Positions 1 through 12,020 of a stretch of 59,684 nt of DNA are shown here, piece after piece. How positions within the stretch are numbered: position 1 is the first letter of the stretch; every line of letters begins with the position of its first letter. This stretch comes from Candidatus Omnitrophota bacterium (lineage in GTDB: Bacteria; Omnitrophota; Gorgyraeia; Gygaellales; Profunditerraquicolaceae). The translations under genes were made by a program, and so were the position numbers. Location: NCBI GenBank assembly GCA_028717885.1, contig JAQUMX010000007.1, positions 1-59,684 of the forward strand, read 5' to 3'. The notes beneath the pieces were generated by a model. That model was given only the letters and a program-made list of their open reading frames with translations. It was not told the origin of the DNA and did not search any database.

Positions 1-893
<893 letters not shown>

Positions 894-999
894 ATTTATT
901 CGAAGTATTATGATAACGGCTCTAATGATTTTTTGTTTTTTTACCTCTTGAAATTGACCCAGATAACTTGCGTTATCAAGGCCACGCTTGGCTATCCAA

Positions 1000-1012
1000 T
1001 TATCAAAAGAAC
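1000..1012 (-). promoter_or_regulatory. boxA-like antitermination element in the rrn leader
   Basis: GTTCTTTTGATAA on the minus strand about 110 nt upstream of 16S; resembles rrn boxA. Confidence 0.5.
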
Positions 1013-1080
1013 GGTGATTAAATCTATTGTATAAGACACCCGAACCTAAAGGATGGTTCGGTGTGCCGCCTTCTGCGGCA

Positions 1081-1115
1081 AACAAAAAGACGCCCCGACA
1101 ACTGCCGGGGCGTCT
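1081..1115 (-). terminator. GC-rich hairpin plus U-run inside the rrn leader
   Basis: AGACGCCCCG-N8-CGGGGCGTCT followed by TTTTGTT on the minus strand. Confidence 0.5.
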
Positions 1116-1232
1116 AAAATTTACAAAACGCCGCTAGTCGGTTTTTTAACTGCTATCCGAATTTGTCAATGCTGTTGTATTTAATATTCACTAATTTAAA
1201 CAGCCTACCCTTTCTTTAAGGATGGGATATTA

Positions 1233-1260
1233 AATATAACAGATAATTGTTTTTTGTCAA
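1233..1260 (-). promoter_or_regulatory. sigma70-type rRNA promoter
   Basis: TTGACA(1260-1255)-16 bp-TATATT(1238-1233) with a TGn extension and an AT-rich UP-like tract at 1261-1280. A second TTGACA at 1169-1164 has a weak -10. Confidence 0.75.
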
Positions 1261-1295
1261 GTATTTTTTTAATAAAATTATAAGTGATGTAATTA

Positions 1296-1328
1296 CATAG
1301 TGTTTATCGTCTATGATAATGCACTATG
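1296..1328 (-). terminator. Imperfect hairpin just downstream of pilC
   Basis: CATAGTG..TTATC / GATAA..CACTATG inverted repeat; no clear U-run. Confidence 0.35.
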
Positions 1329-1341
1329 GGGGGGTATTACG

Positions 1342-2547
1342 CTACTTAGAAATCAGCTGCGTAATCTTAAAGATCGGCAGGAACAGTGAGATTACGATTC
1401 CGCCGATGATAATACCCAGGAAAGAGATAACCAAAGGCTCGATCATGCTGGTTAGGCCGGAAACCGCGGCATCCACCTGGTCATCGTAGAAATCGGCTAT
1501 TTTGGTAAGCATTTTTTCCAACTGCCCGGTCTGCTCTCCTACGCTGATCATCCTGGTAACCATAGGAGGAAAAACTCCGCTCTTAGCTAACGGCGCAGAG
1601 ATCCTTTCGCCTTCGCGCACCGAAGTACGGCAATCCGAGATCGCTTGCTCAACTACCTTATTCCCGGCAGTCTTGGAAACAATATCCAGGGCGCTTAATA
1701 CCGAAACGCCACTCTTAACTAACGTAGAAAATGTCCGGGAAAATTTTGCTACTGCCACTTTACGGAAAAGCGGCCCTAAAATCGGCGCTTTCAATTTCTG
1801 CCCGTCAAACTGCATCTTCCCTTTTGGAGTATTGATATATTTCTTAAAAAGAAAACCTCCTGCAACGAAAACGCCTACCACCGGCAGGAAGAAATGTTTT
1901 AAGACATCGCTGATGCCAATCAATATGCGGGTAGGCAAAGGCAGCTCTCCTCCCAACATATCAAAGATCCCTTTAAATGTAGGTACGACTTTCAGCAGCA
2001 GAACCGCAGTAATCAAAAGCGACATGGAAACTACTACTGCGGGGTAAATCAGGCTGGAGGTAACTTTTCGGGTCAATGCTGCGGTTTTTTCCAGGTAAGT
2101 TGCCAACCTATCCAAAACCTCATCCAACATACCCGAAGCTTCTCCTGCCTGCGTCATATTGATAAAAAGATCGGAGAATACCGCCGGATGCTTGGCTAAA
2201 GCATCGGAAAAACTCAAACCGGCTTCGATATCTTTACGTGCGGCAGCTACCACTGCCTGAAGGTTTTTATTTTCGATCTGTTCGCTCAAAATCCCCAATG
2301 CCTGAACCACCGGAATACCTGCATCGATCATGGTGGCTAATTGCCGGGAAAAAATTACCAGGTCATCGAGTTTAACCTTGCCTCCGGCTTTTCCTTTTGC
2401 CGCAGCTTGTTTCTTAGCCTGCTTGACTGCCAAAATAATCAATTCTTTCTTATGCAAAGACTCGGTAACTTCCGCTTCGCTGTTTACTTCCAGCGTGCCG
2501 GTTACGGTTTGGCCGTTCCTGTCTTTAGCAGTATATTGGAAGATCAT
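1342..2547 (-). CDS. pilC: Type IV pilus inner-membrane platform protein PilC (GspF family)
   Basis: FSRQLATMIDAG, AGEASGMLDEVL and GEQTGQLEKML motifs; two GspF repeats with three TM helices. Confidence 0.95.
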   Translation of the reverse strand: MIFQYTAKDRNGQTVTGTLEVNSEAEVTESLHKKELIILAVKQAKKQAAAKGKAGGKVKLDDLVIFSRQLATMIDAGIPVVQALGILSEQIENKNLQAVVAAARKDIEAGLSFSDALAKHPAVFSDLFINMTQAGEASGMLDEVLDRLATYLEKTAALTRKVTSSLIYPAVVVSMSLLITAVLLLKVVPTFKGIFDMLGGELPLPTRILIGISDVLKHFFLPVVGVFVAGGFLFKKYINTPKGKMQFDGQKLKAPILGPLFRKVAVAKFSRTFSTLVKSGVSVLSALDIVSKTAGNKVVEQAISDCRTSVREGERISAPLAKSGVFPPMVTRMISVGEQTGQLEKMLTKIADFYDDQVDAAVSGLTSMIEPLVISFLGIIIGGIVISLFLPIFKITQLISK

Positions 2548-3617
2548 ATTTTATCCACAATCCTCAAGAAACATTCCACTACTTTGGGATCAAACTGCGT
2601 TCCGTTGTGTTTTTCGATTTCCCTGACAGCCGCTTCTTTGGTTAAAGGGATTTTTCGATAAGAACGCGCCGAGGTCATCGCTTCGTACGCATCTGCCAGA
2701 TGAATGATCCTGGCGCCTAAAGAAATCTCCTCTCCTTTTAAGCCATCAGGGTATCCCGAACCGTCAAAATGTTCATGATGCTGACGGATTAATTCTATCA
2801 CGCCATGCAGAAAAGTCAACGGCTCCAAAATCTGCGCTCCAGTCAAAGGATGCCGCTTCATCAGCTCCCATTCTTCCTTGTTTAATTCCGCAGGTTTGAT
2901 CAAAATATTATCTTGGATGCCGATTTTGCCCAAATCATGCAATTCACAGGCTTCCCGGATTAGCTCGATATCCTTGGCAGAAAGATGCATCTCTTCGGAA
3001 ATAAGCGTAGCGTATTTCGCGACATTCTGCGAATGGCTGTGCGTATAATGATCCCGGGCGTCGATTGCCTGGGCGAGTGCGCGGATCGTGCGCATATAAG
3101 TAGAGCGCAGGTCTTCGTAAAGCCGGGTTAAATTTTTCGTCGAGTCTTCGATGCGTTTAGCCAAAAGCGTATTCTGTTTTTGCAGGGACAAATTCTGTTC
3201 TCTGATACTATGCTGCAGCTTACGGTGCGCCAAAGACATCGTATGCAGGTCAATCCCTTTCTTCACTAAAAAATCCAATTTCCTGTCATCGATCGGCAAA
3301 CTGATAAAATCATAGATTCCTAACTGGAGGTTAGTTTTAATCAACACCGGGTCGTCCTGCTCGATTAAAGCGATAATCACCACGTCGGGATCGACTTTGC
3401 GTAATTGCGCCACGGTTTCCGCCGCATCAAAATAAGGCATATCTAACTTAATAATTACCAAATCAAAAGCAGTGGTTTTGAAAGTTTCGATTCCTGCCGG
3501 GCCGTTATGCTCCGCAAAGAAAGAAATACTGGCTTGCCCTTGCGCAGCCATCTTTGCCTTTAAATAAGTGGTAATTTCGCTGTTATTGTTAATCAGTAAA
3601 ATTTTCGGATCTGCCAT
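2544..3617 (-). CDS. Pseudo-receiver + coiled coil + HD-GYP cyclic-dinucleotide phosphodiesterase
   Basis: HS..V, LHDLGKI, HHEHFDGSGYP, AD..RSYR. The N-terminal REC-like fold lacks the acidic pocket and the phospho-Asp. Confidence 0.9.
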   Translation of the reverse strand: MADPKILLINNNSEITTYLKAKMAAQGQASISFFAEHNGPAGIETFKTTAFDLVIIKLDMPYFDAAETVAQLRKVDPDVVIIALIEQDDPVLIKTNLQLGIYDFISLPIDDRKLDFLVKKGIDLHTMSLAHRKLQHSIREQNLSLQKQNTLLAKRIEDSTKNLTRLYEDLRSTYMRTIRALAQAIDARDHYTHSHSQNVAKYATLISEEMHLSAKDIELIREACELHDLGKIGIQDNILIKPAELNKEEWELMKRHPLTGAQILEPLTFLHGVIELIRQHHEHFDGSGYPDGLKGEEISLGARIIHLADAYEAMTSARSYRKIPLTKEAAVREIEKHNGTQFDPKVVECFLRIVDKI

Positions 3618-3641
3618 AGTTGTTCTCCCCTTAAGTTGTAA

Positions 3642-5345
3642 TTATTCCTCGGTAGTTATCCTTAAGGCTTCGTCGAGAGAAGTTAGCCCATCTTTCACCT
3701 TTAGAAAAGCATCGTCCCTTAAGGTGCGCATGCCGCGTTTTTCGATTGCGTATTTTTTGATATCGTCGATGGATTTCTTGCGCATCACCAGGTCGCGGAT
3801 CTCATCATCAATCATAATTACTTCCAGGATTGCGATTCTTCCGTAAAAACCTGTATTATTGCAATAGGAACAGCCTTGCGCGGTATAAAATTTTGTTTTT
3901 TCCTTAAAACCGATTTTCTGCAAGAAATCAGGGCTGATCTCCGTAGGTTTCCTGCATTTCAGGCAAAGTTTGCGCGCCAACCTCTGGGCGCAGAGCATAA
4001 TCAGGCTCGACGCCACTAAAAACGGCTCAACCCCCATATCGATCAGGCGCGTAACACTGGAAATAGCATCATTAGTATGCAATGTAGATAATACTACCTG
4101 GCCGGTCAATGCCGCTTTTACCGCAATATCCGCGGTTTCTGCGTCCCTGATTTCTCCGATAAGAATGACATCCGGGCTCTGGCGCAGCAAGGAACGCAGC
4201 CCCGAAGAAAAATCCAGGCCGATATCCGGCCTTGCCTGCACCTGGGTAATACCTTCGATCTGGTATTCTACCGGGTCTTCAATAGTAATGATATTTCGTT
4301 CCGGAGTATTAAGCTGGTTTAAAACTGAGTACAAAGTGGTGGATTTTCCTGATCCCGTTGGGCCTGTAACCAGGATCATGCCAAATGGCTTTGCCACCGC
4401 TTCTTTAAAAACCCTCTTTGGCTCGTCGGAAAAACCCAGCTGCTCCAATCCGATCGAAAGGTTTGATTTATCCAGCAAACGCAAAACGAACTTTTGCCCG
4501 AAAGTCGTAGGCAAAGCAGAAACGCGAAAATCCACTTCCTTGTTTTCGAACTTCACTTTAAACCTGCCATCCTGCGGCAGCCGGTTTTCCGTAATATCCA
4601 AATTAGAGATAATTTTTAACCTCGCCAACACTGCATTCTGGTTTTTCTTCGGCAGTTTCAAAATATCATGCAGAGAGCCGTCAATGCGGTACCTGACCCG
4701 CAAACAATCCTCTTCCGGCTCGATATGGATATCCGAAGCCCGCTTTTTAAGCGCCTGGGTAAGCATTAACTCTACAATCTTGATAATCGGAGGCTTTTCG
4801 CTTTCTTTAATCGCACTGGAAAGCTCGATCTCCTCGGGCTTAATTCTCTGCGTATCATCAGAACCTTGCCCTTCGCCGCTCTCATCCAGGATCTGTTGAA
4901 TATCCTTGGTATCTTGGTGATACTGGGTTTCAATCATATGCATGATTTCTGTTTCCGAGCTTAAAACCGTATCTATATTGCATCCGGTAAGTGTCTTTAA
5001 ATCATCGAGCGCAAAAATATTCAAAGGGTCCGACATTGCTACGGTCAGGGTGTTGCCGATACGCGAAAGCGGAATAATTGAATATTGCTTGGCAAGGCGC
5101 TCCGGGATAAGGCTTAAGATTTCCGGGTCGAATTTATATTTTGCCAGATGTAAAGTCGGGATAAACAGCTCCTCGGAAAGGAGCGACAAAAGCTGATCCT
5201 CGGTAATTAATTTCTGCTGGATGAGGATTTTACGCAAAGGCGCTTGCTTGGCTTTCTGCGCCTCGATAGCCTTATCCAGCTGCTCTTTGCTCAGCTGTTT
5301 ACTCTTGATCAAGATTTCGACAATACTTTCTCTTAAACTATGCAT
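3642..5345 (-). CDS. pilB: Type IV pilus assembly ATPase PilB/GspE, paralog 2
   Basis: Walker A GPTGSGKST, Walker B ILIGEIRD, STLHT, tetracysteine CLKC..CSYC. Confidence 0.92.
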   Translation of the reverse strand: MHSLRESIVEILIKSKQLSKEQLDKAIEAQKAKQAPLRKILIQQKLITEDQLLSLLSEELFIPTLHLAKYKFDPEILSLIPERLAKQYSIIPLSRIGNTLTVAMSDPLNIFALDDLKTLTGCNIDTVLSSETEIMHMIETQYHQDTKDIQQILDESGEGQGSDDTQRIKPEEIELSSAIKESEKPPIIKIVELMLTQALKKRASDIHIEPEEDCLRVRYRIDGSLHDILKLPKKNQNAVLARLKIISNLDITENRLPQDGRFKVKFENKEVDFRVSALPTTFGQKFVLRLLDKSNLSIGLEQLGFSDEPKRVFKEAVAKPFGMILVTGPTGSGKSTTLYSVLNQLNTPERNIITIEDPVEYQIEGITQVQARPDIGLDFSSGLRSLLRQSPDVILIGEIRDAETADIAVKAALTGQVVLSTLHTNDAISSVTRLIDMGVEPFLVASSLIMLCAQRLARKLCLKCRKPTEISPDFLQKIGFKEKTKFYTAQGCSYCNNTGFYGRIAILEVIMIDDEIRDLVMRKKSIDDIKKYAIEKRGMRTLRDDAFLKVKDGLTSLDEALRITTEE

Positions 5346-5348
5346 GGA

Positions 5349-7055
5349 TTATTCGTCGGGAGCGGTGACGCGCACCACTTCTTCCAAAGTAGTCAAGCCT
5401 TTCAGCGCCGCTGCCACTCCATCCTCTCTTAAAGTATGCATACCTTCCTGCCTTGCTTGCTCTTTGATCAAATGCTCCTGCGCGCGGGACAAAATAAGTT
5501 CCCTGATCTTTGGCGTTAAAACCAGCATTTCCGCAATCCCCACCCTACCGCTGTAACCGGAATTAAAACACTGCGGGCAGCCTTTGCCTTTAAAGAACTG
5601 CGTTTGTGAAATGCCTAATTTAAGGTTTTGTGCTACTTCTTTATCCAAGGTATATTTTTCTTTACAGTGGTCGCAGATTTTTCTTACCAAACGTTGCGCC
5701 ACCACACAAATCAGGGAAGAATTAATCAAAAAAGGCTCGACCCCCATGTTTACCAAACGCACGATTGCACCCTGCGCAGTAGTGGTATGTAAAGTAGATA
5801 ATACCAAATGCCCGGTTAAAGCGCTTTTAATGGCAATATCCACGGTTTCAAAATCGCGGATTTCTCCGATCATGATTACATTCGGGTCCTGCCTTAAAAT
5901 AGAGCGCAAAGCGCTGGCAAAGGTAAGGCCAATGTCAGGCTTAATCGTCACCTGATTGATCCCTTCCAGCTGGAATTCAACCGGATCCTCAACGGTAACG
6001 ATATTTTTTTCCGGGTTATCGACAAATTTCAACACCGAATAAAGCGTGGTTGTCTTTCCTGCGCCGGTTGGCCCGCAAACCAAAATCATCCCGTGAGGCA
6101 TTATGGATAATTTTTTTAATTTAGCGACAAACTCCGAATTAAAACCTAACTTCTCGATATCGAGCATTGCCTGGGTCTTATCCAGAATACGAATCGCAAC
6201 TTTCTCTCCGAAGCTTGAAGGCAAAATAGAAACGCGAAAATCGATTTCCCTGCCGAAAAGGTGCGCCTTGAACCTGCCGTCTTGCGGAAGGCGGTGCTCG
6301 GCAATATCCAAATCCGACATGACCTTGATCCTGGAAATAATCATCGGGTGCATTGCCTTGGGAGGGGCGGTCTGCTCCTGTAAAATACCGTCAAGGCGGA
6401 AACGGATCCTTAATTTCTTTTCCAAAGGCTCAATCAGGATATCGGATGATTTCTTTTTTACCCCTTCCTGCACGATCATATTGGTAATTTTGATTACCGG
6501 CGCATCCCAGCTGGAACGGCCCAATTCCTGGTCGCTGGGCAGAGTTTCCCTTTCTTCCTTAATCAATTCGATGGAAGTTGCCGCCATCTCCCGCACCAGG
6601 TTATCGATGACCCCGCCGGTAGCATCGGGATAGTACAATTCTATAGTCTGGTTAATATCCTTGCTGGAAGAAATTATCGGATTGATTTTATAACCGGTAA
6701 ATAACTGCACATGGTCAATGGCAAAAATATTCAACGGGTCAGCCATGGCAAGGGTGATAGTGTCACCCATCTTAGAGATAGGCACGATCTGATAGTGGTG
6801 GGCAATATCGATTGGAATAGTCTTTACTACTTCGGGATCGACCTTGAAGCGTTTTAAATCGATCAGAGGAAAACCTAGGCCCTGGCTCAGCGCGGAAATT
6901 AAATCCTTCTCCTCGATGAATTTCAGCTCTACGATAATATCGCTAAGCCTGCCGCCTTTTTTCTTCTGCTCCTCCAGGGCCTGATGCAACTGATCCTGGG
7001 TAAGCAGTTTATTATTGATTAGGATTTCCGTAAGGCGGTCTTTTAGTGAAAACAT
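5349..7055 (-). CDS. pilB: Type IV pilus assembly ATPase PilB/GspE, paralog 1
   Basis: Walker A GPTGAGKTT, IMIGEIRD, HLVLSTLHT, CDHC..CPQC; MshEN-like N-terminus. Confidence 0.92.
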   Translation of the reverse strand: MFSLKDRLTEILINNKLLTQDQLHQALEEQKKKGGRLSDIIVELKFIEEKDLISALSQGLGFPLIDLKRFKVDPEVVKTIPIDIAHHYQIVPISKMGDTITLAMADPLNIFAIDHVQLFTGYKINPIISSSKDINQTIELYYPDATGGVIDNLVREMAATSIELIKEERETLPSDQELGRSSWDAPVIKITNMIVQEGVKKKSSDILIEPLEKKLRIRFRLDGILQEQTAPPKAMHPMIISRIKVMSDLDIAEHRLPQDGRFKAHLFGREIDFRVSILPSSFGEKVAIRILDKTQAMLDIEKLGFNSEFVAKLKKLSIMPHGMILVCGPTGAGKTTTLYSVLKFVDNPEKNIVTVEDPVEFQLEGINQVTIKPDIGLTFASALRSILRQDPNVIMIGEIRDFETVDIAIKSALTGHLVLSTLHTTTAQGAIVRLVNMGVEPFLINSSLICVVAQRLVRKICDHCKEKYTLDKEVAQNLKLGISQTQFFKGKGCPQCFNSGYSGRVGIAEMLVLTPKIRELILSRAQEHLIKEQARQEGMHTLREDGVAAALKGLTTLEEVVRVTAPDE

Positions 7056-7060
7056 TTTTT

Positions 7061-7109
7061 CAGCTATCAGCTATCAGCTATCAGCTATCAGCTATCAGCT
7101 GAAAGCTAA
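7061..7109. repeat. Heptamer tandem repeat (CAGCTAT)x5 plus 2 variants
   Basis: cagctat x5, cagctga, aagctaa fill the gap before the pilB start. Confidence 0.97.
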
Positions 7110-7113
7110 TTCT

Positions 7114-7563
7114 TTATTCCTTCTCCTTATAATATTTCTGAATTGCTCTTTTTACGTCCGAAGAAGTTGAAACAAAGGTCTGAACAGTGCAACCGGTAGT
7201 CATCTCCACATCTTCAATTGCCTGCACATTCAGTGGGTTTGACATTGCTATCGTAAGGTTATTGCCGATTTTATCGATCGGGATCAAAAGGAATTGTTTG
7301 GCTACCCTACCGGGGATAAGGCCGATTACCTCGGGATTGATTTCATAATTGGCTAACGGCAAATAAGGAAAACCGTATTGGGCGGTGAGTGCCTGGGCAA
7401 TATCTTCTTCCTTGCAGAAGCCCAGCTCAACCAAAACTTCTCCGATCAGTCCACCTTTCTCCTTCTGGTTGGCAAGGCCCTTCTCCAACTGCTGCTCATT
7501 AATGATCCCCCATTCTAAGAGCAGCTCGCCTAATTGCTTATTGGTATTCCTTCTGATCGGCAT
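7114..7563 (-). CDS. Stand-alone MshEN / GspE N-terminal domain protein (probable c-di-GMP receptor)
   Basis: QLGELLLEWGIINEQQLEKGLANQ and LIGEVLVELGF match the tandem MshEN motif; no ATPase domain. Confidence 0.85.
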   Translation of the reverse strand: MPIRRNTNKQLGELLLEWGIINEQQLEKGLANQKEKGGLIGEVLVELGFCKEEDIAQALTAQYGFPYLPLANYEINPEVIGLIPGRVAKQFLLIPIDKIGNNLTIAMSNPLNVQAIEDVEMTTGCTVQTFVSTSSDVKRAIQKYYKEKE

Positions 7564-7579
7564 AATATTTTACCGGCGC

Positions 7580-9001
7580 TTAAACTGCAATCCGGTTTTT
7601 TCCTTGTTGTTTTGCATGGTTAGCCCGGTCTTTTGCCCGCGCGACTAATTCTTCTGCCTCGACGCCATCGAGCGGATTTTCGCTTACACCGCCGCTGCAG
7701 GTAATCTTCTTATTGTTATCCTGCTCTTCGGAAAAAACAAACTCGATCTTTTTTCTGATTTCCTCGGCAATAGTCTGCGCCTGCCTTTTATTTTTTTCCG
7801 GAAGGACAATAGCAAATTCATTGTCTCCGATCCTTCCTACGCGGTCGATTTCCGTCACAGATTCCCTGATGATTGCCGCTACTCTTTTTAAGGCCGCCTC
7901 GGTTTGCAGCGACCCGAAATTATCGTGGAATTTACGGAAGTTATCCAAATTAAGCAAAACATAGGCACAAGGCCTTTGGTAAGTAATTGCGCGCTTGATC
8001 TCTTCCTGCAGGCGGTTATGAATGAAAGTCTCGTTATAAAGCCCGGTTAAGGCATCCTTGATTTCCAGCTTTTCGATCCTATGCAACAGAAGATCGTTCT
8101 CGACGGCAATGGCGATTTGCTTGGCAAAAACATCAAGTAGCTCGATGTCGTCTTTCATAAAATTAAATTGCTCTTTGATATTGCCCACGCCCAAAAGCCC
8201 GACTAACCTGCCGCGTAAATAAATCGGCAAGGCTAAAACATTCCTTAAGCGGAATTGTTCAAGAAATAGGCTTTTCACATTTTCCGGTTGCGGATTATCT
8301 TTATCCAGGATTAGGGGCCTGCCTGTCTTAGCCAGTTTAGAAAGCATAGCTTCTTCAAATTCCGCTTCCAGCTTATAAAGATGCTGGGCATTCGGCCCGT
8401 CGGCAATCTTGGTATGAAAAACCGCTTTGTTCTCGTCCCGGAAGAGCAAAAATGCCAGGTCGGAATTTGCGATAAAGCGTGATTTCTCTACGGTAAGCTT
8501 AAGGATTTCTTCCAGTTTTGCGCTTTGCGTAATCAGGGAACTGATTTGCAGCAGGCTGGAAAGCACCAAGATGCGCTTTTGAATTTCCAGGTTGATTTCG
8601 GTAGTTTTTTCGCTGTAGTTCTTAAGCTCATCCATATTATTACGGATGCGATTAGTCAGCTGGTTTAAAGCATCACCTAAATCACCCACCTCATCTTCGC
8701 GCTCGATATCGAGTTTACGGGTAATGTCTCCGGCGGCAATCATTTTTGCTTCCGTAGATACGGAAAGGATCCGGTCAAAGACTTGCTTTATCACAAAAAA
8801 CCCCAGGAAAGCGACAAAAAAACTTATTCCCAGGGTAGCCATGACTTCGAAACGCAAGCCAAAACGCGGCAGGATATAATTTGAAACCAAGTAGACCGAA
8901 ACCAATAACGGCAATACTGCCATCAAATACAATGCCAACCTTAATTTATATTTTAAACCCCGGGACGCAAAGGAGACTCTCTTACTGCTCTGTTTTTTCA
9001 T
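7580..9001 (-). CDS. Membrane HAMP-GAF-GGDEF protein with degenerate active site
   Basis: Two TM helices, HAMP (DEVGDLGDALNQL), GAF, DALTGLYN; signature reads RIGDNEF. Confidence 0.88.
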   Translation of the reverse strand: MKKQSSKRVSFASRGLKYKLRLALYLMAVLPLLVSVYLVSNYILPRFGLRFEVMATLGISFFVAFLGFFVIKQVFDRILSVSTEAKMIAAGDITRKLDIEREDEVGDLGDALNQLTNRIRNNMDELKNYSEKTTEINLEIQKRILVLSSLLQISSLITQSAKLEEILKLTVEKSRFIANSDLAFLLFRDENKAVFHTKIADGPNAQHLYKLEAEFEEAMLSKLAKTGRPLILDKDNPQPENVKSLFLEQFRLRNVLALPIYLRGRLVGLLGVGNIKEQFNFMKDDIELLDVFAKQIAIAVENDLLLHRIEKLEIKDALTGLYNETFIHNRLQEEIKRAITYQRPCAYVLLNLDNFRKFHDNFGSLQTEAALKRVAAIIRESVTEIDRVGRIGDNEFAIVLPEKNKRQAQTIAEEIRKKIEFVFSEEQDNNKKITCSGGVSENPLDGVEAEELVARAKDRANHAKQQGKNRIAV

Positions 9002-9015
9002 CTTCTTCTCCCCTT

Positions 9016-9147
9016 AATAAGCACATGACTTACGAACACGTAAGCGCGAGTAAGTCATTGTGCGAATTAATCCCCACGCCAATTTGCGTGGGGACAAATT
9101 CAGCCACAGGCTTACGTTCACTTTGTTCCGTAAGCCTAGGCTTTATT
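9016..9147. repeat. Multi-hairpin element, copy A (H1-H2-H3)
   Basis: TGACTTAC/GTAAGTCA, TCCCCACGC/GCGTGGGGA and AGGCTTACG/CGTAAGCCT, closed by AATAA/TTATT; homologous to copies at 18446, 51691 and 57156. Confidence 0.85.
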
Positions 9148-9150
9148 CGA

Positions 9151-9179
9151 ATTATATTACTTATTTGTTTTTTATGCAA
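9151..9179 (-). promoter_or_regulatory. Probable promoter of the GGDEF-MshEN-pilB-pilB-HD-GYP-pilC operon
   Basis: TTGCAT-17 bp-TAATAT on the minus strand; predicted start near 9144. Confidence 0.55.
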
Positions 9180-10917
9180 TGCTTTTATTATAATCATTAA
9201 GCAGGGCCTCTTTACTGACGCCGGAATCGATAAAATCCCAAGCCAATAATTCATTTTTTGATTTTTCTTTTAAAAAATCCTCTGGGGCGATTCCCGCCTC
9301 TTGAAAAGCTTCCATCCAGCGCGCAAAATTAAAATGTTCCTGCCAGCCGTCAAAACGCGCCCCCTTGCGAAAAGCTGATTCGATAACCTGGCTTAACCTG
9401 CGGTCGCCTCTGGCTATTACCCCCTCCAAGAAACTCGTTTCTGCATTATGGAAACTCAATTTTATTTTTTTATTCCGGTTGAGCTTGCGCAAGTATCCCT
9501 GCTTTTCTTTGATTTGCTCTATGCCTTCCATCCCGAACCATTGAAAAGCAGTGTGCGGCTTGGGGATCAAAGCATTTACACTTATATTTACCTGGGCATT
9601 AAACCCGCTTGTTTTTTTTCTTAACTGCGAAGCGTTATTGGCAAAATCCAAAATACTGCCTAAATCATCTTTTTCTTCTTTTGGCAGGCCGATCATAAAA
9701 TATAACTTCAAATGCTGATACCCTGCCTGATAAGCCTGTTCCAGGACGCGCAAAAACTCCGGAATATCAAAATCCTTATTCAGGACTTTGCGTAATTTTT
9801 CCGACGCTGCCTCAGGAGCAAAGGTTAAGCCGGTTTTTTTTATTTTAGAAATTAAAGACGCTAACTCTCCTACCATTTCACGCGGTTTTATCGAAGGCAA
9901 AGACACGCTTACCTTTTTTCCTTCGAACAAGGAAATTAAATTCCCCAGGATTTCTTTGATTTGCGGATGATCGCTGGCAGATAAACCGACGAGAGAAATT
10001 TCTTCATAGCCGGTATTTTGGTAAAGCTTGCAGGCTAAATCAGAGACTGCTTCCGTTTTTCTGATGCGAAACGGGGAATACAATGTGCGCGCCTGGCAAA
10101 AACGGCACTGATTAGGGCAGCCGCGCATAATTTCCAGGATCAGGCGGTCATGCACGACCTGGATAAAAGGAACCAGCCAATCCAAAGGAAAATATGACTG
10201 GTTAAGGTCTTTAACAGAGCGCTTCTTAACCACTGCTTTTAAATTGGCGTACTTTGGCTTAAATTCTTTTTGCTTGCCTTCCTGATCAAAAGAAACTGTA
10301 TAGAGCGAAGGCGCATAAACTCCTTCTATGCCGCAAAATTTTAAGAGAAATTCTTCTTTAGAGATTTTTCCCGCCTTAAAATCAGCGGCGTGGATTTTAT
10401 AAAGGCCGACGATTTCCTGAAGCGCTTCTTCAGCTTCTCCAATTACAAAGATGTCGATAAATTCATGCATTGGCTCCGGATTGAGCACACACGGCCCACC
10501 GGCAATCACTAAGGGAAAACTTGCATCGCGTAATGCGCTTTTTAAAGGAATGCCTCCCAGGTCCAAAAGATTCAAAACGTTAGTATAACTTAATTCATAT
10601 CCCAAAGAAAAGCCCACAAGATCGAATTCGCGCAAAGTTTTTTTAGACTCTAAGGAAAATAACTGGAGCTTGCCGCTACGCAACAACCCCTCCATGTCGA
10701 TAGCAGGAGAAAAGAATCTTTCACAAACAACCTGCGGCATTTGATTGAGAATGCCGTAGAGGATGCGGATTCCCAAATTACTCATCCCTACTTCATACAG
10801 GTCGGGAAAACAAAGCGCGAATTTTACCTCTGCCGCGTTAAAATCCTTATGCGAAATATTCCATTCTTCGCCGATATAGCGCGCCGGCTTTAATATTTGT
10901 AAAAGATAATCATCCAT
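9172..10917 (-). CDS. Radical SAM protein with B12-binding-like N-terminus (TIGR03960-like)
   Basis: FPDLYEVGMS N-terminus, CPNQCRFC motif, typical position after rodA; ATG overlaps the rodA TGA. Confidence 0.85.
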   Translation of the reverse strand: MDDYLLQILKPARYIGEEWNISHKDFNAAEVKFALCFPDLYEVGMSNLGIRILYGILNQMPQVVCERFFSPAIDMEGLLRSGKLQLFSLESKKTLREFDLVGFSLGYELSYTNVLNLLDLGGIPLKSALRDASFPLVIAGGPCVLNPEPMHEFIDIFVIGEAEEALQEIVGLYKIHAADFKAGKISKEEFLLKFCGIEGVYAPSLYTVSFDQEGKQKEFKPKYANLKAVVKKRSVKDLNQSYFPLDWLVPFIQVVHDRLILEIMRGCPNQCRFCQARTLYSPFRIRKTEAVSDLACKLYQNTGYEEISLVGLSASDHPQIKEILGNLISLFEGKKVSVSLPSIKPREMVGELASLISKIKKTGLTFAPEAASEKLRKVLNKDFDIPEFLRVLEQAYQAGYQHLKLYFMIGLPKEEKDDLGSILDFANNASQLRKKTSGFNAQVNISVNALIPKPHTAFQWFGMEGIEQIKEKQGYLRKLNRNKKIKLSFHNAETSFLEGVIARGDRRLSQVIESAFRKGARFDGWQEHFNFARWMEAFQEAGIAPEDFLKEKSKNELLAWDFIDSGVSKEALLNDYNKSIA

Positions 10918-12020
10918 CAAAATACCGACCTTTTCTTGGCGATATTCGCCAATATTCCTAATGCAATAAAAGTAGTAAATACCGATGATCCGCCGTAACT
11001 CATTAAAGGAAGCGGAATCCCCACCACCGGAGCCAACCCCAAATTCATGGCAATGTTAATAAAGACCTGTAAGCCCAACATAAGAGAAATCCCGAAAGCA
11101 AGCAGCCTGCCAAAATAATCGTGCGTATCCAAACCGATACGTATCCCCTCCCTGACTAAAGCACAGTATAATAATATCAGCGCGGAACTTCCGATTAATC
11201 CCCATTGCTCGGCAAAAGTAGCGAAGATAAAGTCCGTGTGTGATTCCGGCAAAAAATGCAATTGGCTCTGCGTGCCGGCAAGCCAGCCTTTTCCGAAAAT
11301 ACCCCCTGAACCAATGGCAATTTTTGATTGGATTACCGTATAGCCTGCGCCCAAAGGATCGACATTGGGGTTTAAAAATACCATTAGCCGGTCTTTCTGA
11401 TAGTCGTGCAAAAAATTCCAGAACAGCGGTAGCGAAATAAGCGCTATCGCCGCCAAGATCATGACATATTTCAATTTTATCCCCGCTAAATAAAGCATCG
11501 TGAGAAAAATCAATAAAACGACTATGGCGCTGCCTAAGTCAGGCTGCTCGATAATCAGCCCCATGGGAATAGCTACAAAAATAAACGGTAGGACGAATGC
11601 GCGTAGAATCCCGAATTTCGTCATCAGCAGAGAAACATCCCCGGAAGATTTTTTGCTGAAATATTTTGCCAAAAAAATTACCATCACGATCTTTGCCAAC
11701 TCAGTGGGCTGAAAATTAAACCAGCCAAACCTTAACCAGCGCTGCGCACCCAGCCTGATAGCCCCAAGCACAAAAACCAGGAAAAGCAAAAATACCACTA
11801 GCGCGTACAATAAATAAGAAGCGTCCCAAAGCCGGCGGTAATTAAAATTCGCCAGCAGAAAAAATAAAACTAAACCCAGAACCACCCAAAGAATTTGCCT
11901 GCGGTAAACCAGTTGCCAACCCGAGGCTTCCTTCTGATAGGTGCTGCTGTAAATCGACAAAATCCCGATCAAGGCAATTGTTAGTGCAACTATAATGATC
12001 AAAAATCCGCTTGCCTTCAT
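10917..12020 (-). CDS. rodA: Rod shape-determining SEDS protein RodA
   Basis: GAQRW, FQPTELAK, QPDLG, PESHTDFIF, LPLMSYGGSS; follows PBP2. Confidence 0.96.
   Translation of the reverse strand: MKASGFLIIIVALTIALIGILSIYSSTYQKEASGWQLVYRRQILWVVLGLVLFFLLANFNYRRLWDASYLLYALVVFLLFLVFVLGAIRLGAQRWLRFGWFNFQPTELAKIVMVIFLAKYFSKKSSGDVSLLMTKFGILRAFVLPFIFVAIPMGLIIEQPDLGSAIVVLLIFLTMLYLAGIKLKYVMILAAIALISLPLFWNFLHDYQKDRLMVFLNPNVDPLGAGYTVIQSKIAIGSGGIFGKGWLAGTQSQLHFLPESHTDFIFATFAEQWGLIGSSALILLYCALVREGIRIGLDTHDYFGRLLAFGISLMLGLQVFINIAMNLGLAPVVGIPLPLMSYGGSSVFTTFIALGILANIAKKRSVF

Follow-up and report, generated by a model that had tools for sequence, protein, structure and literature searches.

A free MshEN protein beside two PilB-like ATPases with degenerate MshEN motifs in an Omnitrophota pilus operon

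The free MshEN protein and its place in the operon

Omnitrophota are ultra-small, uncultured bacteria. We analysed a window of 59,684 nucleotides from the metagenome-assembled genome of an Omnitrophota bacterium (1.47 Mb, 88% complete), in which six closely packed minus-strand genes run from position 9001 to 1342 and encode, in order, a GGDEF protein, a free MshEN protein, the PilB-like ATPases PilB1 and PilB2, an HD-GYP protein and PilC. The gaps between them are 16, 58, 3, 24 and −4 bp, and the sole convincing terminator in the operon sits after PilC (1088–1115); from the small gaps and the single terminator, the six genes are predicted to be one transcription unit, the putative motor operon of an Omnitrophota type IV pilus-like machine. 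We found that the only canonical site for cyclic di-GMP (c-di-GMP) in this operon belongs to the free MshEN protein, whose ligand-contact residues are its most conserved. The three genes at issue and their motifs are:

7114–7563, minus strand: free MshEN protein, 149 aa; PF05157 at 70.6 bits (cut-off 23.1) and NF053729 at 64.3 bits (cut-off 38)
7378–7536, minus strand: 53-residue c-di-GMP motif of the free protein, residues 10–62; QLGELLLEWGIINEQQLEKGLANQ, spacer KEKGG, LIGEVLVELGFCKEEDIAQALTAQ
5349–7055, minus strand: PilB1, a PilB/GspE-type extension ATPase of 568 aa; T2SSE at 455 bits, TIGR02538 at 630 bits; His box TGH...LHT
6879–7037, minus strand: degenerate MshEN_N motif of PilB1, residues 7–59; RLT..K and RLS..K; the second terminal Gln is shifted by one residue
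3642–5345, minus strand: PilB2, a sister paralogue of 567 aa, 45% identical to PilB1; TGQ in the His box and Ser for D390
5169–5327, minus strand: degenerate MshEN_N motif of PilB2, residues 7–59; SIV..K and PLR..K

The free protein consists of an MshEN_N bundle of four helices together with a T2SSE_N1 subdomain and nothing more. The published MshEN motif, RLGxx(L/V/I)(L/V/I)xxG(L/V/I)(L/V/I)xxxxLxxxLxxQ, occurs twice with a 5-residue spacer. The two motifs of the free protein occupy residues 10–33 and 39–62, joined by the canonical 5-residue spacer, and begin QLGELLLEWG (residues 10–19) and LIGEVLVELG (residues 39–48), exactly as the initial annotation had read them (QLG..L...G and LIG..L...G). 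Both contain the position-3 and position-10 glycines and the terminal Gln. The hydrophobic cluster and Gln residues (L11, L26, L30 and Q33 in motif I; I40, I55, L59 and Q62 in motif II) are each conserved in at least 19 of 21 orthologues. The earlier description of this domain as intact holds for its glycines and glutamines and fails at position 1, where neither motif has an Arg (Q10, L39). Among the orthologues, position 1 is Q, K, R or L in motif I and Leu in 21/21 in motif II.

The weight of each of these residues can be read from studied MshEN domains. In V. cholerae MshEN, the guanine is hydrogen-bonded by the backbone amides of Gly3 and the following residue. The MshE mutant G11L has no detectable binding and G40I binds 72-fold more weakly, with smaller losses for L10A (36-fold), Q32A (9-fold) and Q61A (12-fold) (PMC5013675 supplement); changes of Arg9 shift the affinity less than 5-fold. 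The GSPII-B domain of Thermus PilF has K167 and L196 at position 1 and a dissociation constant of 6 nM, and the mutations K167R and L196R weaken its binding 25-fold and 4-fold, respectively (PMC11731258). A missing position-1 Arg is hence not disqualifying, because a domain with K/L at these positions binds at 6 nM. Judged by its residues, the free protein has every tested feature of MshEN c-di-GMP binding but the Arg at position 1, and we predict it to be a c-di-GMP receptor whose Q/L variant at position 1 is plausibly compatible with tight binding.

The predicted fold agrees with known MshEN structures. The AlphaFold2 model of the free protein has a predicted local distance difference test score of 89.2 and a predicted template modelling (TM) score of 0.79, and a Foldseek search against the PDB matched it to PilF GSPII-A (9G1W, TM 0.84), MshE with c-di-GMP (5HTL, TM 0.72), the X. 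citri PilB-N/PilZ complex (TM 0.68) and PilF GSPII-B with c-di-GMP (TM 0.64).

PilB1 and PilB2: N-terminal motifs and shared ancestry

Residues 7–18 of PilB1 read RLTEILINNKLL, followed by the ...Q ending, and its motif II reads RLSDIIVELKFI; the same residues of PilB2 read SIVEILIKSKQL, again followed by ...Q, with PLRKILIQQKLI as motif II. All four motif glycines are gone from both ATPases, position 3 being T9 and S38 in PilB1 and V9 and R38 in PilB2. PilB1 had been described as having lost both motif glycines and PilB2 as more eroded, and the residues quoted for this were exact (RLT..K/RLS..K versus SIV..K/PLR..K). With the model NF053729, whose cut-off is 38 bits, PilB1 still passes at 57.4, PilB2 falls just short at 35.6, and the free protein reaches 64.3. 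The profile alone would not call PilB1 eroded, and the call therefore depends on the specific residues. The PilB1 motif resembles that of P. aeruginosa PilB (GLS..N/KLS..K), which is listed among the experimentally tested non-binders. The N-domains of PilB1 and PilB2 are probably non-binders of c-di-GMP.

The Walker A motif, Asp box, Walker B motif with the catalytic Glu, second His-box His, Arg fingers and Cys4 zinc motif are kept in both proteins, which bears out the earlier observation that both have Walker A/B and Cys4 and that PilB2 has Q for the first His-box His (TGQ vs TGH). These catalytic motifs are retained across 38 PilB1 and 39 PilB2 orthologues, with the exception of that first His of PilB2, which is Q in 27/39 and H in 9/39. 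Neither protein reaches the TIGR02538 equivalog cut-off of 675.65 bits (PilB1 630.4, PilB2 658.3) or the GspE model cut-off of 630 (613 and 598), and both are best named PilB-like because they fall below the PilB and GspE cut-offs. They also miss the TfpB model NF053534 (445 and 469 bits, cut-off 850). Each is 41–44% identical to the other full-length ATPases of the genome.

We placed the two ATPases in a tree of 99 sequences from Omnitrophota with PilT as the outgroup (IQ-TREE quick search, LG+G4). The PilB1 and PilB2 clades each have a support of 99 in the Shimodaira–Hasegawa-like approximate likelihood ratio test, and their sister relation has 97. All other Omnitrophota PilB/GspE paralogues fall outside PilB1+PilB2, and the internal topologies of the two clades mirror one another. 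Sister clades with a mirrored topology indicate one ancient duplication, the older of the two dates between which the initial annotation had proposed to decide by phylogeny. The tree points to a single duplication that predates the split of the sampled classes, followed by co-divergence. An apparent 1173-aa PilB1–PilB2 fusion in the relative G008 (locus L014, G008:C19, 3522–7043), which at first seemed to offer Rosetta-stone evidence of a heteromer, is spurious and stems from a stretch of masked N in the genome sequence.

Derived changes have accumulated in both paralogues at acidic positions that are near-invariant (15–16 of 16) in other Omnitrophota paralogues, D390S in PilB2 and D436N in PilB1, and PilB2 has the further change H416Q in the His box (27/39). 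The subunits of Geobacter PilB couple their ATP hydrolysis through a contact between chains, and the His box lies at this contact. These changes hint at a mixed ring and are a pointer to one, not evidence for it. In a bolder scheme, the single PilC would be served either by an obligate mixed motor of PilB1 and PilB2 or by the two in strict alternation, and c-di-GMP-loaded MshEN would be an exchangeable third subunit choosing the paralogue or the ring state. The mirrored sister clades, the D390S, H416Q and D436N changes and the position of the His box at an inter-chain contact all fit with this scheme, which we nonetheless regard as quite improbable; if true, the level of a second messenger would switch one pilus machine between two motor modes.

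The initial annotation also suggested that PilB1 and PilB2 may drive different pili. The platform gene bears directly on this point:

1342–2547, minus strand: PilC platform protein, 401 aa; T2SSF at 226 bits, PilC NCBIfam models at 427–441 bits

PilC is the only platform gene of the operon and shares 4 bp with the HD-GYP gene. Elsewhere the genome has at least two more type IV filament clusters, on contigs C4 (1–20389) and C17 (22000–31000). The C17 cluster has a secretin-like gene, PilB, PilC and five pilin-like genes, and its PilB carries a fully canonical MshEN motif in cis (RLG..G/RLG..G); the C4 cluster has an ATPase, GspF, pseudopilins and a PilM-like gene. Were PilB1 and PilB2 to power two different filaments, the free MshEN would serve only one of them. 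Organisms with several PilB homologues do often use separate machines, and this genome has at least three type IV filament clusters. The two genes are, however, sister paralogues with mirrored topologies that lie 3 bp apart and are always co-inherited, and they have one PilC between them, whereas the other two complete PilB/GspE-type ATPases of the genome (C17 and C4) each have their own PilC/GspF and pilins. The shared single PilC indicates that PilB1 and PilB2 are probably not motors of different pili, and we consider a two-filament arrangement highly improbable. Contig C4 also contains an open frame truncated by the contig end, with a length of at least 4120 aa.

Conservation across Omnitrophota

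We read 46 complete cassettes in relatives, together with one locus (L058) that has a single PilB2-like gene only. The order free MshEN, PilB1, PilB2 is found in 45 of the 46. In all 20 loci read from the same family and order, the genes are a radical SAM protein, GGDEF, free MshEN, PilB1, PilB2, (HD-GYP) and PilC; in all 20 loci from other classes and orders they are free MshEN, PilB1 and PilB2, with PilC wherever the contig is long enough. A second free MshEN stands between PilB2 and PilC, in the place of the HD-GYP gene, at two loci (L048:7100–7561, plus strand; L049:5006–5464, minus strand). Three loci have a PilT-like ATPase of 355 aa just upstream of the free MshEN (L039:9832–10896, minus; L042:1935–3002, plus; L051:9762–10829, minus).

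A free orthologue at E ≤ 1e-36 occurs in 191 of 301 sampled genomes of the phylum and in 177 of 247 high-quality genomes, and we sorted case by case 20 high-quality genomes scored without one. Twelve of these lack a PilB2 orthologue too, and four have a more diverged free MshEN, with Gly3 in both motifs, alongside a PilB1–PilB2 tandem. One (G237) has the tandem without a free MshEN. Another three are unclassifiable (a cassette cut by the contig end, a single PilB2-like gene only, and no match). The frequency of the orthologue across the 301 genomes suggests that the cassette is probably central to pilus use in Omnitrophota. The named stand-alone MshEN representatives that we looked up are all from Omnitrophota or an unclassified 'bacterium'. 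Proteins of about 295 aa in which MshEN is fused to PilZ are found in relatives (L072:611–1489, minus strand; L074:158–1048, plus strand) and not in this genome; their MshEN motif I is intact and the motif II Gly is Ser, giving two c-di-GMP modules per protein.

The glycines divide cleanly between the free protein and the ATPases. Within the same order, Gly3 is present in the free MshEN in 21/21 for motif I and 21/21 for motif II, with Q24 in 21/21 and Q53 in 20/21, and it is present in 0/20 PilB1 proteins (T/I and S at position 3) and 0/21 PilB2 proteins (I/V and R at position 3) for both motifs. Seventeen of the 21 PilB2 orthologues have I or V at the position of MshE G11. The motif I Gly is absent from both ATPases everywhere in the 20 loci of other classes and orders. 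On these counts, the split of Gly3 between the free protein and the ATPases is not one of chance. Conservation by region, as mean pairwise identity, follows the same division:

Free MshEN bundle: 69.6% in the same order, 51.5% phylum-wide
PilB1 bundle: 54.7% in the same order, 36.0% phylum-wide
PilB1 ATPase core: 66.6% in the same order, 59.9% phylum-wide
PilB2 bundle: 45.3% in the same order, 34.7% phylum-wide
PilB2 ATPase core: 70.4% in the same order, 62.4% phylum-wide

The bundle of the free protein matches the ATPase cores in conservation within the order. The bundle and core identities together suggest that selection maintains the ligand site in the free protein, with relaxed constraint on the bundles of the ATPases. 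Across 28 phylum-wide orthologues (41% mean column identity), the only invariant columns of the free protein are G12, L15, G41, Q62 and P110.

These invariant columns bear on whether the free protein signals at all. It could be a structural leftover of the fission of an (MshEN)2-T2SSE gene, serving as an extra N-terminal motor tier like the three GSPII domains of Thermus PilF. The free gene does lie directly upstream of PilB1 and sometimes overlaps it, multi-MshEN ATPases exist in Omnitrophota and elsewhere, and the best structural match of the free protein is PilF GSPII-A. A purely structural role does not, however, predict that the invariant residues should be exactly the ligand contacts, and it has to accommodate an HD-GYP phosphodiesterase gene embedded in the operon and the lack of any fused free-PilB1 orthologue among the 46 cassettes read. 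We therefore regard this origin, with no signalling, as very unlikely.

The second half of the free protein suggests another possible role. Its full N1 subdomain is as conserved as the bundle (69.6%), GspE N1 domains bind GspL, the ND0–ND1 region of X. citri PilB binds PilZ, and in A. baylyi the small protein CpiA inhibits one of the two extension motors. The free MshEN may thus be a decoy or brake whose T2SSE_N1 half competes with the N1 of the ATPases for docking to the platform, through a PilM/GspL-like partner or PilC, with c-di-GMP tuning the competition and the ATPases themselves untouched. No PilM/GspL-like gene was found inside the operon by open reading frame list and Pfam, and competition of this kind is indistinguishable from direct action on the ATPases on present data, so that it is a sub-variant of control in trans more than its true opposite. 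As a separate proposal it seems to us decidedly unlikely.

Two cassettes from the same family depart from the common arrangement. Genome G260 (L057, G260:C6, 3795–7125) has a PilB1 without the whole MshEN domain (412 aa) and a PilB2 without the four-helix bundle (542 aa), and its free MshEN is intact. Genome G237 (L056, G237:C39, 2709–9374) has the radical SAM protein, PilB1, PilB2 and HD-GYP, with no free MshEN and no GGDEF gene; among the complete cassettes read, the free protein is absent from this one alone.

By comparison among these relatives, the reading of a split sensor, in which the predicted c-di-GMP site has its own gene and the motors would have lost theirs, is well supported. Several observations nevertheless weigh against it. 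The G237 tandem indicates that the ATPases can persist without the free protein. The motif II Gly3 is kept in three ATPases of the 20 loci from other classes and orders, namely the PilB1 proteins of L036 and L037 and the PilB2 protein of L051. PilB1 retains Arg1, Leu2 and the first Gln and passes the NF053729 cut-off; the MshE mutants at position 3 were Leu and Ile only, and with Thr and Ser at these sites weak or altered binding by PilB1 is possible. The free MshEN could also have another target. Finally, an N-domain tree places the free proteins with the N-domains of ATPase paralogues outside the operon and not with those of PilB1 or PilB2, a grouping that may reflect only shared motif retention. 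The initial annotation held that nucleotide sensing had moved to a separate subunit: the sole canonical site in the free MshEN, the ATPases without glycines and the co-inheritance of the three genes sustain the separate subunit, and the N-domain tree does not sustain the word "moved".

Some of the same observations would suit a motor that still senses in cis. PilB1, and perhaps PilB2, may detect c-di-GMP or a related nucleotide through a re-specified motif, leaving the free MshEN as an extra receptor with its own output, for example via the dead-GGDEF sensor. A PilB1 score of 57.4 bits against a cut-off of 38 and the presence of both ATPases without the free protein in G237 are consistent with this. 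So are the PilB1 replacement residues, which are themselves conserved in a manner more like constraint than decay (T/I at position 3, K at position 10 in 16/20 and S32 in 19/20, with R1 in 18/20, Q24 in 19/20 and L2 retained), and MshEN is known to bind cyclic GMP-AMP weakly too. However, side chains at position 3 clash with the guanine pocket, as the G11L and G40I mutants of MshE illustrate, and P. aeruginosa PilB, with Ser at both position-3 sites, is a tested non-binder. Furthermore, the bundles are the least conserved folded part of both ATPases, and in G260 they are deleted outright. Sensing in cis is, in our judgement, unlikely.

Cyclic di-GMP context and comparison with known systems

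Two further proteins of the operon belong to c-di-GMP families:

7580–9001, minus strand: membrane HAMP-GAF-GGDEF protein; Pfam HAMP, GAF and GGDEF, with GDNEF as the signature and TEID in place of the RxxD I-site
2544–3617, minus strand: receiver-HD-GYP protein; Pfam HD_5, HD and Response_reg

The active site of the GGDEF domain reads GDNEF, with NLDNFRKFHDNFGS and TEID; metal and GTP ligands are changed, and the domain is predicted to be catalytically dead. None of the 23 cassette orthologues read has an intact GG(D/E)EF signature; a degeneracy common to all of these across the phylum suggests that the protein is a conserved, non-enzymatic signalling part of the cassette. The HD-GYP protein has the motifs ELHDLGKIG and HHEHFDGSGYP, with HD kept in 16/16 and GYP in 15/16 orthologues, and probably acts as a c-di-GMP phosphodiesterase. 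In its receiver domain, NN takes the place of the usual acidic pair, and the phospho-acceptor Asp column is variable among the 16 orthologues, which suggests a pseudo-receiver. The genome encodes two canonical GGDEF/GGEEF cyclases, five HD-GYP proteins, nine PilZ proteins and six MshEN domains, an inventory that indicates c-di-GMP is in use. Rfam found no c-di-GMP riboswitch in positions 1–11000.

In the reading that we favour, and to which we give an even chance, a pilus machine with twin motors takes its c-di-GMP input from the free MshEN, a detachable receptor that acts in trans. The 149-aa protein would bind one c-di-GMP in its four-helix bundle, as in MshE and PilF GSPII-B, and PilB1 and PilB2 would be active ATPases whose own N-terminal bundles are past nucleotide binding. 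Ligand-loaded or ligand-free MshEN would then act in trans on the PilB1/PilB2 pair or on its docking to the single PilC, and this action would set whether, or by which motor, the pilus extends. The HD-GYP enzyme of the operon would lower c-di-GMP locally, and the membrane HAMP-GAF protein with its dead GGDEF domain would pass on an outside signal by protein contact.

The closest counterparts of the free protein in sequence and fold are the N-terminal domains of V. cholerae MshE (5HTL) and T. thermophilus PilF GSPII-B (8PDK/8PKZ). They have in common with it the two-subdomain fold (TM 0.64–0.72), the 24 + 5 + 24 residue arrangement, Gly3, the Leu cluster and the terminal Gln, and position 1 of PilF GSPII-B is likewise not Arg in motif I and is Leu in motif II. 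In both proteins, unlike here, the domain is covalently fused to the ATPase that it regulates; in Omnitrophota it has a gene of its own, and the copies within the ATPases are degenerate. The PilB-PilZ-FimX system of X. citri and FimX-PilB of P. aeruginosa offer a parallel in logic, with a PilB ND0 that lacks the c-di-GMP motif, sensing in trans by a protein that acts on the PilB N-domain, and the inclusion of a degenerate GGDEF-containing protein. There, however, the receptor is the FimX EAL domain and the PilZ adaptor is non-binding, whereas in the Omnitrophota operon, which has two ATPases and neither an EAL nor a PilZ gene, the candidate receptor is a paralogue of the ATPase's own N-domain.

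A. baylyi likewise has two extension-type ATPases, PilB and TfpB, on one pilus system, with the small motor-binding regulator CpiA. Its ATPases are phylogenetically distant and non-adjacent, in contrast to the tandem sister paralogues of Omnitrophota, and CpiA, unlike the free MshEN, has no MshEN fold and no known ligand. The Omnitrophota system is a member of neither the PilB-PilZ-FimX nor the PilB/TfpB/CpiA family. The nearest known MshEN protein without an ATPase domain is P. aeruginosa PA3740, which combines a canonical MshEN motif with a diverged T2SSE_N1; it is linked to swarming motility, with no molecular target or ATPase partner named in its paper, whereas in the Omnitrophota protein the N1 half is normal and the gene keeps a fixed place beside two PilB genes. 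We found no published description of the cassette in the literature on Omnitrophota with PilB, MshEN or type IV pili.

Control of pilus extension by c-di-GMP has two known forms, a sensor fused to the motor (MshE, PilF, Myxococcus PilB) and an unrelated receptor acting in trans (FimX/PilZ). The Omnitrophota cassette would present the motor's own sensor domain as a separate, strongly conserved protein beside two apparently ligand-blind sister motors. The effect of the MshEN/N1 tier on the PilB hexamer is regarded in the field as poorly understood, and the cassette may serve as a natural system for what this tier does. It would also add, independently, a second example of one machine with two extension motors. 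The cassette parts, all of them small and soluble, are amenable to tests in E. coli.

Two non-coding features accompany the operon:

7060–7100, no strand assigned: perfect tandem repeat of a heptamer, 5.9 copies, AGCTGAT when read on the minus strand; it takes up the spacer that separates the free MshEN gene from the PilB1 ATG
1088–1115, minus strand: intrinsic terminator-like hairpin at the operon end, with a 12-bp stem, 9 G-C pairs and a T run, upstream of the 16S rRNA gene promoter

No obvious Shine-Dalgarno sequence is visible in the heptamer-filled spacer before the PilB1 ATG, and the spacer could set the ratio of free MshEN to PilB1. Relatives carry heptamer words of their own in the same spacer, often as inverted blocks (L013, L017, L018, L021 and L027). 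Just downstream of the operon terminator, at 1233–1260, is a near-consensus promoter (TTGACA, a 16-nt spacer, TATATT and an extended TG), and a partial 16S rRNA gene, the sole Rfam match in positions 1–11000, occupies 1–893 on the minus strand at the window edge.

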